DNA of 64,000 bases. Source: Nitrosopumilus sp. GTDB lineage: Archaea; Thermoproteota; Nitrososphaeria; Nitrososphaerales; Nitrosopumilaceae. Below are positions 40,689 through 49,876 of this stretch, piece by piece; position 1 is the stretch's first letter; each line of letters starts with the position of its first letter. The translations under genes and the position numbers were made by a program. The stretch is taken from contig CBDBGZ010000004.1 in the NCBI GenBank assembly GCA_965205425.1, forward strand, positions 1 through 64,000, read 5' to 3'. Under the pieces are notes generated by a model. It searched no databases. It had not been told where the DNA came from and was given only the letters and a program-made list of their open reading frames with translations.

Positions 40689-40818
40689 CTTATCCTTAAA
40701 AACGATTTGAAGAGTTAGATGGATTAGGCACTAGCTCTTTGTTTTGTTTTAAATGGCATTTTTACGCCAATGATTTAAGAATTGTTTTTAAAAATTTAGT
40801 TGATTTCGTGCCTAGATT

Positions 40819-41093
40819 TTATCGTTTTTTTAGATATTTTGACAGAATTTCATCAGCCATTTCATCTACATCTATCTCTTTTTTACCAGCTAAACTGCGC
40901 AATTTCCTTGTATTTCCTTTATTCAACTGTATTGTAACTTTTTGTTGTAATAATCCTGCTCTGGCTCTTTTTAGTAGTTTAAGATGTGATGACTTTGGAG
41001 AACGTGTTAAACATTTGAGATATTCTTTTCTTAATTTTTGATCCAGTGGAATAATTTTCTCTGCAATGGATACAGCCTTTGGTACATTTGATA
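40819..41093 (-). pseudogene. ParB-like paralog, 3' fragment
   Basis: Matches the C-termini of the 22156 and 49751 copies; cut at a TA by IS630-B. Confidence 0.85.
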
Positions 41094-41192
41094 TAGCGAC
41101 GATCAAAAGTTCGCAAACATCTTTGCAGGATTTCTAAAGATATAATTTGCAACATCAAGCTTGAATTTTGTCACTCTGAAATATTTTGACAC
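41094..41192 (-). mobile_element. IS630-B right-end fragment
   Basis: Reverse complement of about 32415-32513. Confidence 0.88.
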
Positions 41193-41293
41193 GTGTGTGT
41201 TTAGGTTGTGCCTAGATATATCGAATAGTTTAGATCAGGGAAGAATTTTGCAACAATAATGGGCGATTTTCATGATTGCAAACAATGCGATAA
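41193..41293 (+). mobile_element. IS66-like element B left-end fragment
   Basis: Reverse complement of about 48059-48159. Confidence 0.88.
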
Positions 41294-41297
41294 CTAT

Positions 41298-42442
41298 ATG
41301 AGACTTGGGCATAATTATTTACAAAAATAACTCTCAGTCATTTCCTAACAGCAAAGCATTCTCTTTACAGTTCTTGGATTTTCTGCTCCAATTATACAGT
41401 TGTAATATACTACAAGTTGATACACCAACACACAAACCAATACAAATGATTTCACGTTGTCAAATCCTTTCACATGTACAGTTCTAATGTTGAACGTATC
41501 TTTGAATATTTCAAATAAAGGTTCAATTGAGACTTTTCTTTGTGAGTACAACTCTTGACCTTGTACAGAATTATAAAAATCTGCAAGTTTGATTCGCTCT
41601 GGCGGTGTTGATGGATATATTTTGATAGGACAAATCAATCTCAAATGTCTCTCATCACTAAACTGATATAATGATTTATCATCATATGGCACATCACATA
41701 AAATATTTTCAACCAGTCCTGCAAGTGGTTTGACTAACGTTTCATACATTTTACCATCAGAAACATTTGCAGTTGAGACATCAGCAGACAATGGAACTAT
41801 CAGTTTTCCAGTACTGCAACTCATGTGCAGTTTGTATCCAAATATCCAACCCTTTGATTTTGAAAAACCCCATTTTGCATCAGTATCAATTCCTGGGATT
41901 GGTAGACGATTGTTCTTTATGTCTGATTTGTGCCATACTGGACCATCTGCTTTTAGCATTGAACTATCCCCTGATGCTGAAACATTTTCCACCAATTCCT
42001 CTGAGATGAATTTGTTGCCCATGGTACTAATCATGTCACTAATTGGTAGAAATTGAAATCGTCTGTCAATAGTTCTTCTGTCTGGAATTTGAGTTAATTT
42101 GCAAACCTTGAGCAGTTTGTCATTGGAAGGTTTGATTGAAAGGAAATAATGTAATGTATTGTTACTAGGAATTCTCATCCACAACTTTATGATGAACAAT
42201 TGCACCATCTGGATGGTTGGATACACGTATGGTCTACCCGATCTGAATACTTCCTCATACAAAGACAACATTCCCACCAAATGTAACACGCCAATAAGAA
42301 ATGATTCCGATAGAATCTTGCCAGGGATTTTCATTTGTTTTGACATTCCAATGAACGAAACATGATAAGATCCTTAGCTTTTTCTATTTGAATAATTTGA
42401 GAATTGACTCAAAAATTAGAATTAGTTATGCCCATGTCTCAT
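41298..42442 (-). mobile_element. IS982/IS4-superfamily-like DDE element, transposase 41345-42346
   Basis: IRs ATGAGAC(T/A)TGGGCATAA; GDSS, DAKWG, GYKLH, YSQRKVSIE..FK; family assignment uncertain. Confidence 0.85.
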
Positions 42443-42755
42443 TTACTTCATATCCATGATCGCGTAAAAATTTTGTTGCAGAAATTATTCCAGTTCTTCT
42501 ATTACCATCCTCAAAAGGTTGTTCCCAAGCAATTTTACACATTAAATGAACTGCTTTTTCAATCAAATCTTCTATTTTATTTCCTGAATTTCCAACACTA
42601 TCTACATGTGGAATTACAGTGTCAATGGTACGTGTTGTGCCAATCCACACCTGTTTGCCAGTTAATCTCCTGTGTCTTTCTAGATTTAATAAAACAAGCT
42701 GGAACCAAAGTAAACTTTGTAAATAATTTGGGAAAGAGAATAGAAAAAGTGTCAA
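42426..42755 (-). pseudogene. Fic/Doc-family fragment truncated by the IS
   Basis: KAVHLM..QPFEDGNRRTG..FLRDHG. Confidence 0.75.
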
Positions 42756-46357: not shown

Positions 46358-46563
46358 CTTCAAATCTTCAACTCCTCTTTTTTCTTTTCATAATATAATA
46401 TTGAAAAAAGGTACATCTATCACTAGAAAAACTATATCAGATAAACTATCCATTGAAGAATTTGAATGTGATTACATACAAAAAGAATAAAATAAAAACA
46501 GTAGCCTAGTTGGCTAACGACCTCAGAACCTGTTATATGATAATTTTATAAATTAATTAATGT

Positions 46564-46648
46564 TGGGGACTGGGAGGGACTCGAACCCACGATCAACGGG
46601 TTCTGAGGCCGTCGTTTTACCGACTAAACTACTTTGTTTCCCAACCCC
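46564..46648 (-). ncRNA. Non-canonical tRNA-like gene (loop CTCAGAA, central triplet CAG)
   Basis: D arm GTTT-AGTCGGTA-AAAC, anticodon arm ACGG/CCGT, variable TGATC, T arm GTGGG-TTCGAGT-CCCTC; atypical acceptor stem with a 9-nt insert. Confidence 0.7.
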
Positions 46649-46669
46649 AAATAACCATCAACACTCTTT

Positions 46670-46819
46670 GATGCTTTGAAATCATTTCTGATTCTATTGG
46701 ATTGCAATCATTTTATTGTACAGACAAACTTTCATTTTCAATTCATGAATCATGTTTTCTCTCTTGTGCGATGTCACATGCTCTCCAAATATTCTTTTGA
46801 ATACAGAGAATACTCCCTC
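46670..46819 (-). mobile_element. IS5-family element B, 3' fragment
   Basis: Reads EGVFSVFKRIFGEHVTSHKRENMIHELKMKVCLYN; left boundary approximate. Confidence 0.7.
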
Positions 46820-48159
46820 GTATATGTTTAGATCCCAACTCACACATACTTTACAATCTCGTACAAAAGATTACAATTCCTCATATTCCATGTCATGATG
46901 CAACTCATCAGATTTCCAAACATTCTCATACCCTTCTCATTCCTAACACATCCTCGAATCTTTCTGTGAATGACGGATTCTCTCAACGCGTGTTCTGCTG
47001 CATTGTTTGTAGGTTCTATGTTTTCATACAGCAAAAATGTAAACAGATCGTATTTTGTATTATACAATTTGTTTAGGAATTTCTCCAGTTCCTTTTCATT
47101 GCAATGCTCAGAAACAATTCTTTCAAAGAGATTCACTGCAGCATCATGTGCTGTATCACTTGGTTGTATGCCTTTGATATCGTAAAATAATCTCTGCAAG
47201 GAATAATACAGTGATTTTGAATTGTCTGTTTCTAGTTTTTCTGATGTGTGTCTTGCTTCACGCAGTATGTGTGCCCAACACTTCTGTCTGATACCAAACA
47301 TATGGTATGGCATCCATCCATCACAGACTGCAACTCCTGCAAATGATGGGAAATGTTTTTGCAATACATTTGCACCCCTGCTTTTCTCAACTGTGATGCA
47401 ACAAGAGTTCTGATTTACCCCAGTCCATACCCATCCAGTTTTTCCATGTATGGAACATTTTGTCTCATCAAAATGAGCAGATTTTGAGTCGCAAATGTCC
47501 TGTCTGATTTGTTCTACCATAGGCTCCAGTGCAGATGATACATTGCACAAGCAGTTGTTGATGGTTCCTGCAGATATTTTCAAATTGTAAAAGGCTTGAA
47601 GCATCTTTGCAATGTTTCTTAGTGTAACTCTTGCAGACCACAAAGATAGAATAATTCCTGTAATGTGAAATCCAAGACATCCTTTCTTTGGAATGGGGCA
47701 ATCAGTAACTGTTGTATTTCCACAATTGTTGCAAAAGTAAGAAGGAATAACATGTTTTGTTATGGTAACTGGTTGCGGTTTTGGGATTTCTGCAATGATT
47801 CGAGTTTGTTGTGTAGTTTGAGTTATTTTTTTACTGCCACAGTTTGAGCATTTCTTTGAATCATGATGAATTGTTTTTGTGGGTTTGAAGCTGTGAGTTT
47901 TACCATCATGTCCTGGCTTTTGTCCTGGTTTGTTTGGATGAGTTGATTTTCGTTCTTTCTTTTGTTTTTTCCAGTGGAGAGAATCAGATGATGGTGGAGA
48001 ATTTGGGTTCTCATAGTAGGATAATTTCTTCTTTAGCTCTGTAATCTCTTTTTGTAATTTATCGCATTGTTTGCAATCATGAAAATCGCCCATTATTGTT
48101 GCAAAATTCTTCCCTGATCTAAACTATTCGATATATCTAGGCACGACCTAAACACACAC
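46820..48159 (-). mobile_element. IS66-like element B (transposase 46840-48093)
   Basis: IRs GT(A/G)T(A/G)TGTTTAG(A/G)TC; NSPPSSD, HFDET, QKCWAHILR, PTNNAAE; no TSD. Confidence 0.9.
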
Positions 48160-48195
48160 GTCCTGAGTTGTAACATTTCTTGATGTGACATCTCC
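48160..48195 (-). mobile_element. IS5-A internal scrap
   Basis: Reverse complement of GGAGATGTCACATCAAGAAATGTTACAACTCAGGAC (about 17702-17737). Confidence 0.8.
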
Positions 48196-48275
48196 GGACG
48201 TGGTGTATTTTGGTGATCTGATCATCTAAATACACCAGAACCATGATTGGTAATAGATGGAAAAGTGATCATATA

Positions 48276-48333
48276 TAGCGAAAAGATAAAGTTCGTGAAC
48301 TAAATAATTCCAAAACAAAAAACTTTTTGATCA
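48276..48333 (+). mobile_element. IS630-B left-end fragment
   Basis: Matches 31427-31484. Confidence 0.85.
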
Positions 48334-48566
48334 GTCTACACTGTTCAATCTTAGTGGTTCTGGTAAATTATAGTGATCTGTGTTACAAAACATGAAATAT
48401 GGATCTTCTCCAAATTCGATTTTAGAGAACTTGGTTATTTCTATATGAATAATTTACTCCAAATCATTCTCAGTAAACCCTGCTGTTAAATTTTGGTGAT
48501 CTCAGCCTAATTTTAGAATTTTCAGAATTATTTTTCAAATATTTTGGACATAAGATTCCAAATTTT

Positions 48567-48836
48567 ATGTGGATGGGAGTAAGTATAGAAAATCAAGATT
48601 TTGTTTTAAGAATTAATGATTTGCGCAAAGTAAAATGTCATACACGATTCATAAGTTTTGAGCCATTAATTGGATATGTAGGAAAAGTAAATCTGAAAGG
48701 AATTGATTGGGCAATAATTGGAGGTGAGAGTGGACACCATTACCGATCAGTAGAAAAAGAATGGATTCTAGAAATTATTGAACAGTGTAAAAAGCAAAAG
48801 GTGGCCGTATTTTTCAAACAATGGGGTGCTAATTAA
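48567..48836 (+). pseudogene. DUF5131 (phage Gp37/Gp68) family C-terminal remnant
   Basis: WMGVSIE, RFISFEPLIG, IDWAIIGGESG, FFKQWG. Confidence 0.85.
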
Positions 48837-48941
48837 TTATCAATCCACAGTATACACACTTGAAAATTATGTGTTATTTTTTTGATCATTTGTCAATTAT
48901 TGACCACTTTACATTTTATCAAAAATAAAAAAGTCTGATAC

Positions 48942-49751
48942 ATTACGGCTAAAAAATATAATTCACCAATAACTTATCGATTAAAGGAAATTCCTGTAAA
49001 ACAGATTAAAGTATGGAAAGATGCACAGGCAAGAAAACTAGACCGCGAGGGAATTGCAGAACTTGCAAAGTCTATCAGAAATGATGGGTTACAAAATCCG
49101 CCGATGGTCCAGAAAAATGGTAAGAACTCTTATCTGTTAATGTCAGGCCAGAGAAGGCTTGCAGCTTTGAAAAGACTAGGTGCAAAAAAGATACCCGTAT
49201 TACTGTTAACAAATAGTACCAAATATGATTTAGAGGATGCAAAGGCAGCATCAGTTGTTGAGAATTTACACAGAAATCAAATGAACACTAAGGATATGAC
49301 TGCAGCTTGTGTATTTTTAACAGAATCTGTAGGAAAATCAAAGGCTGCAAAATCATTAGGGATTTCATCTCAGACCTTGAAAAAATACCTTGGATTTGCA
49401 GCAGTTCCAGAGAAACTAAAACGATTTGTTCCAAAAGAGTTGTCTTGTGATGATTGTACTAGATTATATCAAATTGTATCAAATGTACCAAAGGCCGTAT
49501 CCATTGCAGAGAAAATTATTCCGCTAGATCAGAAACTACGAAAGGAATACCTCAAGGCTTTAAGTAGATCTCCAAAGTCATCACATCTAAAATTACTAAA
49601 AAGAGCCAGAGCAGGATTACTCCAACAAAGAGTCACAATTGAATTAACTAAAGGAAATGCAAGGAAATTACGTAGTTTAGCTGGTAAAAAAGAGATTGAT
49701 GTAGATGAAATGGCTGATGAAATATTATCTAGTTATCTGAAAAGAAGATAA
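48942..49751 (+). CDS. ParB/Srx CTPase-domain protein with HTH and C-terminal RHH-like domain; probable non-canonical ATT start
   Basis: Frame open from 48939: ELAKSI..GLQNP, SGQRRLAA, ENLHR. Confidence 0.85.
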   Translation: MTAKKYNSPITYRLKEIPVKQIKVWKDAQARKLDREGIAELAKSIRNDGLQNPPMVQKNGKNSYLLMSGQRRLAALKRLGAKKIPVLLLTNSTKYDLEDAKAASVVENLHRNQMNTKDMTAACVFLTESVGKSKAAKSLGISSQTLKKYLGFAAVPEKLKRFVPKELSCDDCTRLYQIVSNVPKAVSIAEKIIPLDQKLRKEYLKALSRSPKSSHLKLLKRARAGLLQQRVTIELTKGNARKLRSLAGKKEIDVDEMADEILSSYLKRR

Positions 49752-49876
49752 ATCCTAGTCATGAAAATAGGATTTTCATAAATCAATACATGTAACTTTC
49801 ATGCCTAATGGAGAATTAACCAAAGTATTACGGTTAAGGTGTTTTTCTAGATGATTTTAAGAAGCATGTTTTAAAA

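Follow-up and report, generated by a model that had tools for sequence, protein, structure and literature searches.

In type I toxin-antitoxin (TA) systems, the antitoxin is a short antisense RNA with a target-binding stretch at its 5' end and a terminator hairpin at its 3' end, and the genes occur in tandem, divergent, and convergent layouts. In type VIII systems, for which TADB 3.0 gives creTA and SdsR-RyeA as validated loci, both partners are RNA and are encoded within 200 bp of each other on the same or opposite strands (PMC10767807); the SdsR and RyeA genes are described as overlapping, CreT as sequestering a host tRNA, and CreA as acting through Cascade. Bacterial allo-tRNAs combine Ser or Ala identity, some of them with G3:U70, with non-cognate anticodons that include GUC and those of Leu (PMC5389517, PMC7609411); they have 8/4 or 9/3 acceptor branches, were found near TA genes and transposons, and are reported to be toxic in E. 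coli (PMC5389517). The tRNA-ProX of Streptomyces and Kitasatospora are natural dual-identity tRNAs that carry Pro, lie beside a dedicated ProRSx, miscode, and impair growth, with toxicity reported in E. coli (PMC10404621). In yeasts of the CUG-Ala clade, a tRNA-Ala(CAG) is the device of a true reassignment of the genetic code (PMC11415595).

The candidate module described here, found in Nitrosopumilaceae, consists of a gene for a tRNA of alanine identity with a foreign anticodon and a gene for a predicted small RNA complementary to its anticodon arm. As in the type VIII loci, both predicted partners are RNA and are encoded close together, but the two genes do not overlap, the module needs no CRISPR-Cas, a tRNA would be what is sequestered rather than the target of the toxin, and the proposed toxin is a charged miscoding tRNA, unlike that of either validated locus. 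Whereas type I antitoxins target the mRNA of the toxin, this small RNA would target a tRNA anticodon arm. The tRNAs are archaeal (with bacterial-looking loci besides) and short armed, and each has a private antisense RNA; membership among the allo-tRNAs was rejected, as the 12-bp branch is divided in the canonical 7/5 manner in 33/33 aligned members. The partner is an RNA and not a synthetase as for tRNA-ProX, and although an Ala body and a CAG anticodon are shared with the yeast tRNA, there is no reassignment in the present genome, in which several anticodons coexist. Full-text literature searches, judged by titles and the beginnings of abstracts, returned no report of a tRNA paired with an anticodon-directed antisense RNA. 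The word “antisense” is absent from the main text of PMC5389517 and PMC7609411, and it does not occur either in the main text of any other paper about unusual or miscoding tRNAs in which it was looked for; similar neighbors might be displayed in the locus figures or supplements of PMC5389517. A module made of a tRNA and an antisense RNA is apparently undescribed.

We came to this module through positions 46564 to 46648 of the window (the whole 64,000-nt stretch of DNA that was analyzed, G000:C4:1-64000), where an initial annotation had described a noncanonical tRNA-like RNA on the minus strand. The minus-strand letters at 46648-46564 read exactly as it had written them. Judged by gene content and GC, the host resembles a Nitrosopumilus-type ammonia-oxidizing archaeon. 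The features of the region, all on the minus strand, are as follows.

46820-48159 (-), IS66-family element that abuts and truncates the IS5 copy (Pfam)
48093-46840 (-), IS66 transposase (Pfam)
46630-46819 (-), right-hand 190 bp (positions 822-1011) of an IS5-family element (repeat copies; Pfam on a full copy)
46622-46629 (-), presumed 8-bp target duplication beside the IS end, its partner at the left IS end being absent from the assembly
46566-46629 (-), remnant of an alanine-identity tRNA gene, bases 10-73 (homologue comparison, Rfam)
46629-46614 (-), D arm of the remnant
46612-46596 (-), anticodon arm of the remnant, with C31:C39 unpaired
46605-46603 (-), anticodon CAG of the remnant
46590-46574 (-), T arm of the remnant
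46573-46567 (-), 3' acceptor strand of the remnant, with U70 present
46545-46560 (-), A/T-rich TATA-like stretch, a putative archaeal promoter (consensus match only)
46494-46532 (-), predicted antisense small RNA of about 39 nt, intact, its ends inferred
46530-46516 (-), 15-nt complement of the anticodon arm (13 Watson-Crick pairs and 2 G.U)
46516-46502 (-), hairpin of the small RNA, a diverged D-arm complement, picked by a terminator scan
46498-46494 (-), U-run of the small RNA

The check by tRNA-model scoring that the initial annotation had proposed came out both ways: Rfam matched the body, over model positions 7-64 only (46632-46573, 43.8 bits), and ARAGORN called no tRNA gene at 46648-46564. 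The claim that the feature is tRNA derived and yet not an ordinary tRNA-Leu(CAG) was borne out. The CAG loop is real, and so is the C31:C39 mismatch, which is a family trait, as 31:39 is open in 19/33 aligned family members. The variable loop is only 5 nt long and the long arm is absent, as had been noted, which rules out archaeal Leu identity, for which a long variable arm and A73 are required (PMC9976931); the canonical Leu-CAG gene is present elsewhere in the same genome (G000; C7:61137-61221). By contrast, the body is not Met-like, as had been proposed, but Ala-like: its identity is 0.75, 0.74, and 0.64 to the three Ala tRNAs of the genome, as against 0.57, 0.53, and 0.45 to the three CAT tRNAs, and 0.37 to Leu-CAG. 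A Met or Ile2 (CAT) origin was rejected for the family as a whole, in which the closest canonical body is that of an Ala tRNA in 26/34 intact members and never that of a CAT tRNA. The first tRNA letter is base 10 (46629), and bases 1-9 and the promoter are missing. Compared with the intact CAG homologue in G142, the window copy can no longer form pair 50:64 of the T stem and has C73 in place of A73, so that, with bases 1-9 gone as well, it does not have the complete alanine identity set. These further losses indicate a decaying pseudogene, and we consider it highly probable that this tRNA is dead.

The 5' part of the feature is insertion sequence DNA. Positions 46648-46632, which had been read as the 5' strand of an extended, bulged 8-bp acceptor and a 9-nt insert before U8, form, together with TA at 46631-46630, the terminus of a repeated element whose last two bases (TA) occupy the place of U8-A9 by chance. 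Full copies of this element, which we take to be of the IS5 family, are 1011 bp long with terminal inverted repeats and match DDE_Tnp_1 and DDE_Tnp_1_5 in Pfam; six are uninterrupted in G000, 5/6 of them flanked by 8-bp target duplications. The remnant in the window holds the end of the transposase frame and the right terminal inverted repeat. An IS5-family end is thus involved, as the initial annotation had supposed, but it ends inside the gene, at base 10, and not about 20 nt upstream.

The proposal that the 85-nt chimera of IS end and tRNA body is a functional tRNA mimic draws on the facts that it folds well (z = -3.7) and that the IS end is one base off the lost 5' acceptor strand. The pairing of this end with the 3' acceptor strand (-16.6 kcal/mol) was equaled by 0/5000 random genomic 17-mers. 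About as good a pairing (-14.6 and -14.5 versus -14.7) is obtained, however, with the 3' ends of 2/43 unrelated tRNAs in the genome, and the pairing was therefore taken as a coincidence between an IS end rich in G and a tRNA end rich in C. Against the proposal, the 49-mer ending at 46632 and followed by TA occurs at 9 places in G000, 8 of them without a tRNA body behind. The homologues compared are ordinary tRNAs, all without the insert, which the initial annotation had itself named as evidence against its reading. No bulge-helix-bulge around the insert was seen by eye or in the predicted fold, and with pair 50:64 and A73 also lost, we find a functional chimera scarcely credible. The reading of the insert as an archaeal tRNA intron is moot given its IS origin.

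The two flanks of the IS66 element are mismatched, which would fit a later deletion or rearrangement in which the left part of the IS5 copy, the tRNA 5' end, and the promoter were lost. Neither the left IS5 junction nor the missing 5' end was found in the G000 assembly, and there was no IS-free allele among the joints and loose ends listed for contigs from public runs. Contigs from two of these runs (X1 and X2) span the tRNA-IS junction without differing letters, which argues against an assembly error at the joint; either run may be the source of the window itself. Inverted paralogous gene pieces lie nearby (window 40804-41293 and 48059-49766; 85% over 290 nt), as does a second IS66 left end that is interrupted by another IS of the DDE type (41292-42448), and we regard both as signs of local rearrangement. 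A Fic/DOC fragment (42426-42755) and a DUF5131 fragment (48567-48836), identified with Pfam, flank the region, as in a decaying defense or mobile island. At another site (G000:C4:165242-166366, L146), a shortened copy of the same IS5 element is followed by two tandem modules (AAG and GAA) with near-identical bodies and switched partners, after which comes an IS66 left end.

A DNA search of 151 genus genomes returned two homologues, one with CAG and the other with GAA, both in G142 and both with an ordinary 7-bp acceptor, G3.U70, and A73. The intact CAG homologue is a normal cloverleaf with alanine identity, an Ala-like body, and a Leu anticodon. G000 itself gave 60 Rfam tRNA matches, which make up a near-complete canonical set (including intact Leu-CAG, Phe-GAA, and Asp-GTC) and a series of extras: 8 Ala-type genes with GAA, GTC, AAG, or CAG anticodons, the window copy counted, 3 long-arm Ser-type GAA genes, and one other oddity. 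Through model and pattern searches, we extended the Ala-type family to 50 genes in Nitrosopumilaceae, from at least 13/151 genus genomes and at least 6 genomes of four other family genera. The two models used (R1 and R2, 33 candidates scored per genome) give high scores to canonical Ala tRNAs as well, and membership was therefore decided from the anticodon. Strict patterns with a 5-nt loop matched at least 3/401 Thermoproteota genomes, all of the window's family, and those with a 4-nt loop at least 10/401, counting family genomes only; both patterns miss known members, so that these counts are lower bounds. An exact 16-nt pattern matched 111 stretches of genome contigs, and nearly all of the 80 listed came from unrelated organisms.

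The anticodons of the 50 members (GAA 19, AAG 11, GTC 9, GAG 5, CAG 3, GAT 2, and ATC 1) fall only in the Phe, Leu, Asp, and Ile boxes, and none is an alanine (NGC) anticodon. Alanine identity is nonetheless written into the acceptor stem: G1-C72 and G2-C71 are present in 33/33 aligned members, G3.U70, the main AlaRS determinant (PMC9976931), in 32/33, and A73 in 34/35 members of the first set of 35. According to the cited accounts, AlaRS does not read the anticodon (PMC11415595), Asp identity requires G73, and the core Phe identity set is the anticodon plus A73 (PMC9976931). The GAA members carry this core Phe set, so that PheRS may compete for charging them; the archaeal G20 element is present in 0/14. 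In the alignment of the 33 members, which was fitted to a tRNA model and so leans toward structure, 96% of cells pair and 15/21 pairs show changes on both sides, indicating that the cloverleaf is conserved by compensatory change. A37 is found in 35/35 first-set members, C33 in 10/35, and G32 in 8/35; C33, G32, and the open 31:39 pair may weaken decoding. The genes lie at IS-rich, nonsyntenic sites among transposases, for the most part, and variable genes, and no recurring synthetase neighbor was found when ORFs within 1.6 kb of 35 tRNA genes (33 Ala-type and 2 Ser-type) were clustered and read by eye. A small protein (53-69 aa, related between loci) is encoded divergently upstream of the tandem-type modules L143, L145, L154, and L188 and is a possible regulator.

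Downstream of the window remnant, by 30 to 35 nt, lies an RNA unit complementary to the anticodon arm, which the initial annotation had missed together with the alanine identity set and the tRNA family. On the antisense strand, a TATA-like box is followed by a sequence complementary to tRNA bases 29-40, by a hairpin that goes back to the D-arm complement, and by a U-run, and the unit resembles tRNA bases 5-40 along its length. The box lies about 27 to 31 nt upstream in most members, presumably the spacing of an archaeal TATA box; in the window its exact register is less clear than in the homologues. Across the family, the predicted small RNA is 40-48 nt long and encoded about 35 nt from the tRNA gene. 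When all 60 tRNAs of G000 were aligned to their own flanks, 7 Ala-type genes came out on top, two of them first via a tandem neighbor. The unit is present at 8/8 Ala-type extra loci of G000, and a genome-wide search with a profile of its 3' part hit these 8 places and no others.

In the family as a whole, a partner unit lies beside 48/50 members, which are related, so that counts here are not of independent events. In the first set, 32/35 members have 11-17 contiguous Watson-Crick pairs across the anticodon no more than 120 nt away, and in the second set 14/15 have 11-12 of 12 pairs. By comparison, the maximum was 8 contiguous pairs in 43 other G000 tRNAs and 9 pairs, within 200 nt, in 33 canonical Ala tRNAs of relatives (three of these, from G218, G219, and G232, can be set aside without affecting the claim), and no antisense unit lay beside any of these canonical tRNAs. 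The partner match is interrupted in L162 and L195. Two members have no partner: L189, where an IS abuts tRNA base 1 and replaces the promoter, and L239 (G182), whose tRNA looks intact and which has no convincing partner within 400 nt. Among the 33 members with at least 9 pairs (L189 and L195 left out), pairing holds at bases 29-40 in at least 32/33 cases and collapses at 26 and 42, showing that conservation is centered on the anticodon. Where close paralogues differ in anticodon, the partner carries the matching change, as is seen in G000, G142, G220, G162, and G164. In cofolding of 32 small RNAs (one duplicate and two weak cases left out), the cognate tRNA was the best predicted binder for 30; one exception was won by another CAG member, and in the other, L151, the cognate ranked 7th. 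Canonical G000 tRNAs with the same anticodons bind the small RNAs at 0 to -5.6 kcal/mol in these predictions, and CreT-like sequestration of a host tRNA was rejected for that weakness. The specificity of the putative antitoxin is thus a computed one, from cofolding and co-variation. The 32 clear first-set cases comprise 19 divergent, 12 tandem-downstream, and 1 convergent layout, with L328 as a second convergent case, and the order of box, complement, hairpin, and U-run holds in all three. In none of these arrangements can the unit be a leader of the tRNA, which favors a separate antisense RNA. Spare units without a tRNA of their own occur at L155 and L183. We consider it very probable that the partner is a real antisense RNA against its tRNA.

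Pattern scans of metagenomes (55 stretches) and viral contigs (4 stretches) gave 64 matches to 49 distinct tRNAs. A complement of 10-18 bp lies within 200 nt of 19 of them; among the remaining 30 are poorly parsed genes as well as ordinary Lys and Val tRNAs that have G3.U70. Of the 19, L281 belongs to the archaeal type. Many of the rest look bacterial in that sigma-70-type promoters and intrinsic terminators surround the complement (L259, L265, and L280), and among such loci there is a fourth, tandem-upstream layout. A terminator lies between complement and tRNA in L259, a second promoter-like site precedes the tRNA in L265, and the pair in L312 stands in a record classed as a provirus. As judged from these sequence features, the module layout apparently extends to bacteria and to a provirus. 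When two of the bacterial-looking modules were used to search plasmids, the matches were confined to fragments of tRNA. Five bacterial-looking Ala-type tRNAs (L274, L285, and L292-L294) have a UGA anticodon, C at 37, and an upstream complement that covers the 3' side of the anticodon arm and not the 5' side. Two Val(CAC)-type tRNAs with G3.U70 (L254 and L258) have a direct downstream copy of the anticodon arm and may be convergent modules or integration scars. In a high-GC GUC group (L252, L269, L280, L282, L287, and L297), an additional conserved hairpin separates the tRNA from the small-RNA promoter.

The genomes contain other odd tRNAs. Three long-arm Ser-type tRNAs of G000 with G73 have the Phe (GAA) anticodon (C9:254932-255019, C9:901281-901367, and C8:120793-120882; L145, L148, and L149). 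None of them has an adjacent complement in G000, and a genome-wide search for distant complements of their arms returned essentially self-matches only; one of the genes lies 430 nt from an Ala-type GUC module. A long-arm tRNA of G144 with G73 and an Ile (GAT) anticodon (L186, minus strand, 623-711), about 800 nt from an Ala-type GAA module, is a second possible Ser-type miscoder. Two further long-arm tRNA-like genes of G000 are odd (C9:1042184-1042266, L150, and C9:356125-356209), one with an apparent ACC loop and one found only by the Ser-type profile. The genes for tRNA-Thr-TGT, Glu-CTC, Ser-TGA, Tyr, and Leu-CAA occur twice in G000 with differing flanks, which possibly reflects a strain mixture (CheckM-type contamination, 5.2%) or element integration.

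The reading that we consider best, and toward which we lean slightly, is that these loci are RNA-RNA TA modules in which a mistranslating tRNA of alanine identity is the toxin. The toxin would be a tRNA-Ala derivative that keeps G1-C72, G2-C71, G3.U70, and A73 under an anticodon for Phe, Leu, Asp, or Ile; by the identity rules, AlaRS of the host would charge it with Ala, which would then be inserted at foreign codons proteome-wide. The antitoxin would be the separately transcribed 40-48-nt RNA, whose complementarity to tRNA bases 29-40 and co-variation with them are seen and whose pairing in the cell we infer. The open 31:39 pair would help this pairing, and the duplex could extend into the D arm; the antitoxin would hide the anticodon and probably block maturation or use of the tRNA. 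If, by analogy with other TA systems, the short RNA decays faster than the tRNA, locus loss or a shut-off of transcription would free the miscoding tRNA and arrest growth. That the unopposed toxin RNA would do so is suggested by analogy with the toxicity of allo-tRNAs and tRNA-ProX, and expression, charging, decoding, and toxicity of the module are all predictions from sequence. The presumed order of events in the window is insertion of an IS5 element at base 10, loss of the 5' end and promoter through an IS66 event, and the onset of decay in the tRNA, with the small-RNA gene left intact; the locus thus reads as a dead, transposon-broken copy of such a two-gene RNA module. Of the options that the initial annotation had offered, a pseudo-tRNA and a CUG-reading oddity both proved apt. 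Several observations speak against the TA reading: L239 looks intact and yet has no convincing partner, the partners of L162 and L195 are imperfect, and the three Ser-type GAA tRNAs, which have no adjacent complement, indicate that a putative miscoder can exist without a partner. CUG is rare in G000 (3.9 per 1000 codons), which would make the CAG version a mild toxin.

All of the structural evidence for a TA module applies equally to switchable adaptive mistranslation, in which the small RNA would regulate low-dose Ala miscoding under stress to the benefit of the host, with no addiction or killing. C33 and the open 31:39 pair could tune the dose, and miscoding by tRNA-ProX is reported to have raised carbenicillin tolerance in E. 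coli (PMC10404621). However, the distribution is patchy (at least 13/151 genus genomes), a genome may contain as many as 8 copies, whose partners are private and, by prediction, do not cross-react, the sites are IS rich and nonsyntenic, and IS elements have knocked out the tRNA or its promoter in the window and in L189. As these features fit selfish modules better than a conserved host circuit, we regard adaptive mistranslation as a minority possibility. Alternatively, the tRNA might not decode at all but act as a decoy or sponge, with anticodon nucleases, synthetases, or the small RNA itself as its target; the small RNA would then be the active or toxic partner, like CreT. The anticodon arms are irregular, and some bacterial-looking members have C at 37, in keeping with such a role, but A37 is invariant in the first set, the anticodons of the 50 archaeal members are confined to four boxes, the predicted binding of the small RNAs to host tRNAs with the same anticodon is weak, and the small RNA of the window is intact without an intact tRNA. 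A decoy, furthermore, should copy the host anticodon arm, from which the arms of the family differ, and a pure nuclease decoy would not need the G3.U70 that is kept. We consider this explanation improbable.

It is very improbable, in our estimate, that the module is a neutral by-product in which the partner is a partial tRNA duplicate (an integration scar or conversion tract) and the tRNAs are silent junk. The unit does resemble the tRNA along its length, and the surroundings are rich in mobile DNA, but pairing is near perfect across bases 29-40 and breaks off on either side, changes that G.U pairing tolerates persist, compensatory changes are seen in the cloverleaf, and the unit has a hairpin, U-run, and promoter-like box of its own in three orientations at a spacing of about 35 nt. 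A change of the genetic code, with CUG (or UUC or GAC) reassigned to Ala, has its precedent in the yeasts cited above; it is largely refuted here and retains almost no likelihood. The canonical Leu-CAG, Phe-GAA, and Asp-GTC genes are intact, and when 70 G000 proteins were compared with their relatives, CTG stood opposite Leu in 75% of 87 columns and opposite Ala in 0%, TTC stood opposite Phe in 78% of 156 columns and opposite Ala in 0%, and GAC stood opposite Asp in 70% of 151 columns and opposite Ala in 0.7%.

Taken together, the feature as first described is an IS artifact on a pseudogene, one that led to a tRNA and antisense-RNA module of about 200 bp of which the window holds only a broken example. 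Whether the family represents an all-RNA class of addiction or abortive-defense modules in ammonia-oxidizing archaea, and apparently in bacteria and a provirus, with a tRNA as toxin, an anti-anticodon RNA as antitoxin, and specificities that change in pairs within about 200 bp, we regard as evenly balanced. If the TA reading is true, these loci would constitute a TA mechanism that has no protein of its own and uses mistranslation as the poison. They would also provide natural examples of an antisense RNA directed at the anticodon arm of a tRNA and of miscoding tRNAs in archaea; we found none of these in print. The TA reading would also explain how genomes tolerate seemingly lethal chimeras of identity and anticodon, to which annotation pipelines give the names of ordinary tRNAs for Phe, Leu, or Asp, and such modules would form a silenced reservoir from which codon reassignments could start.
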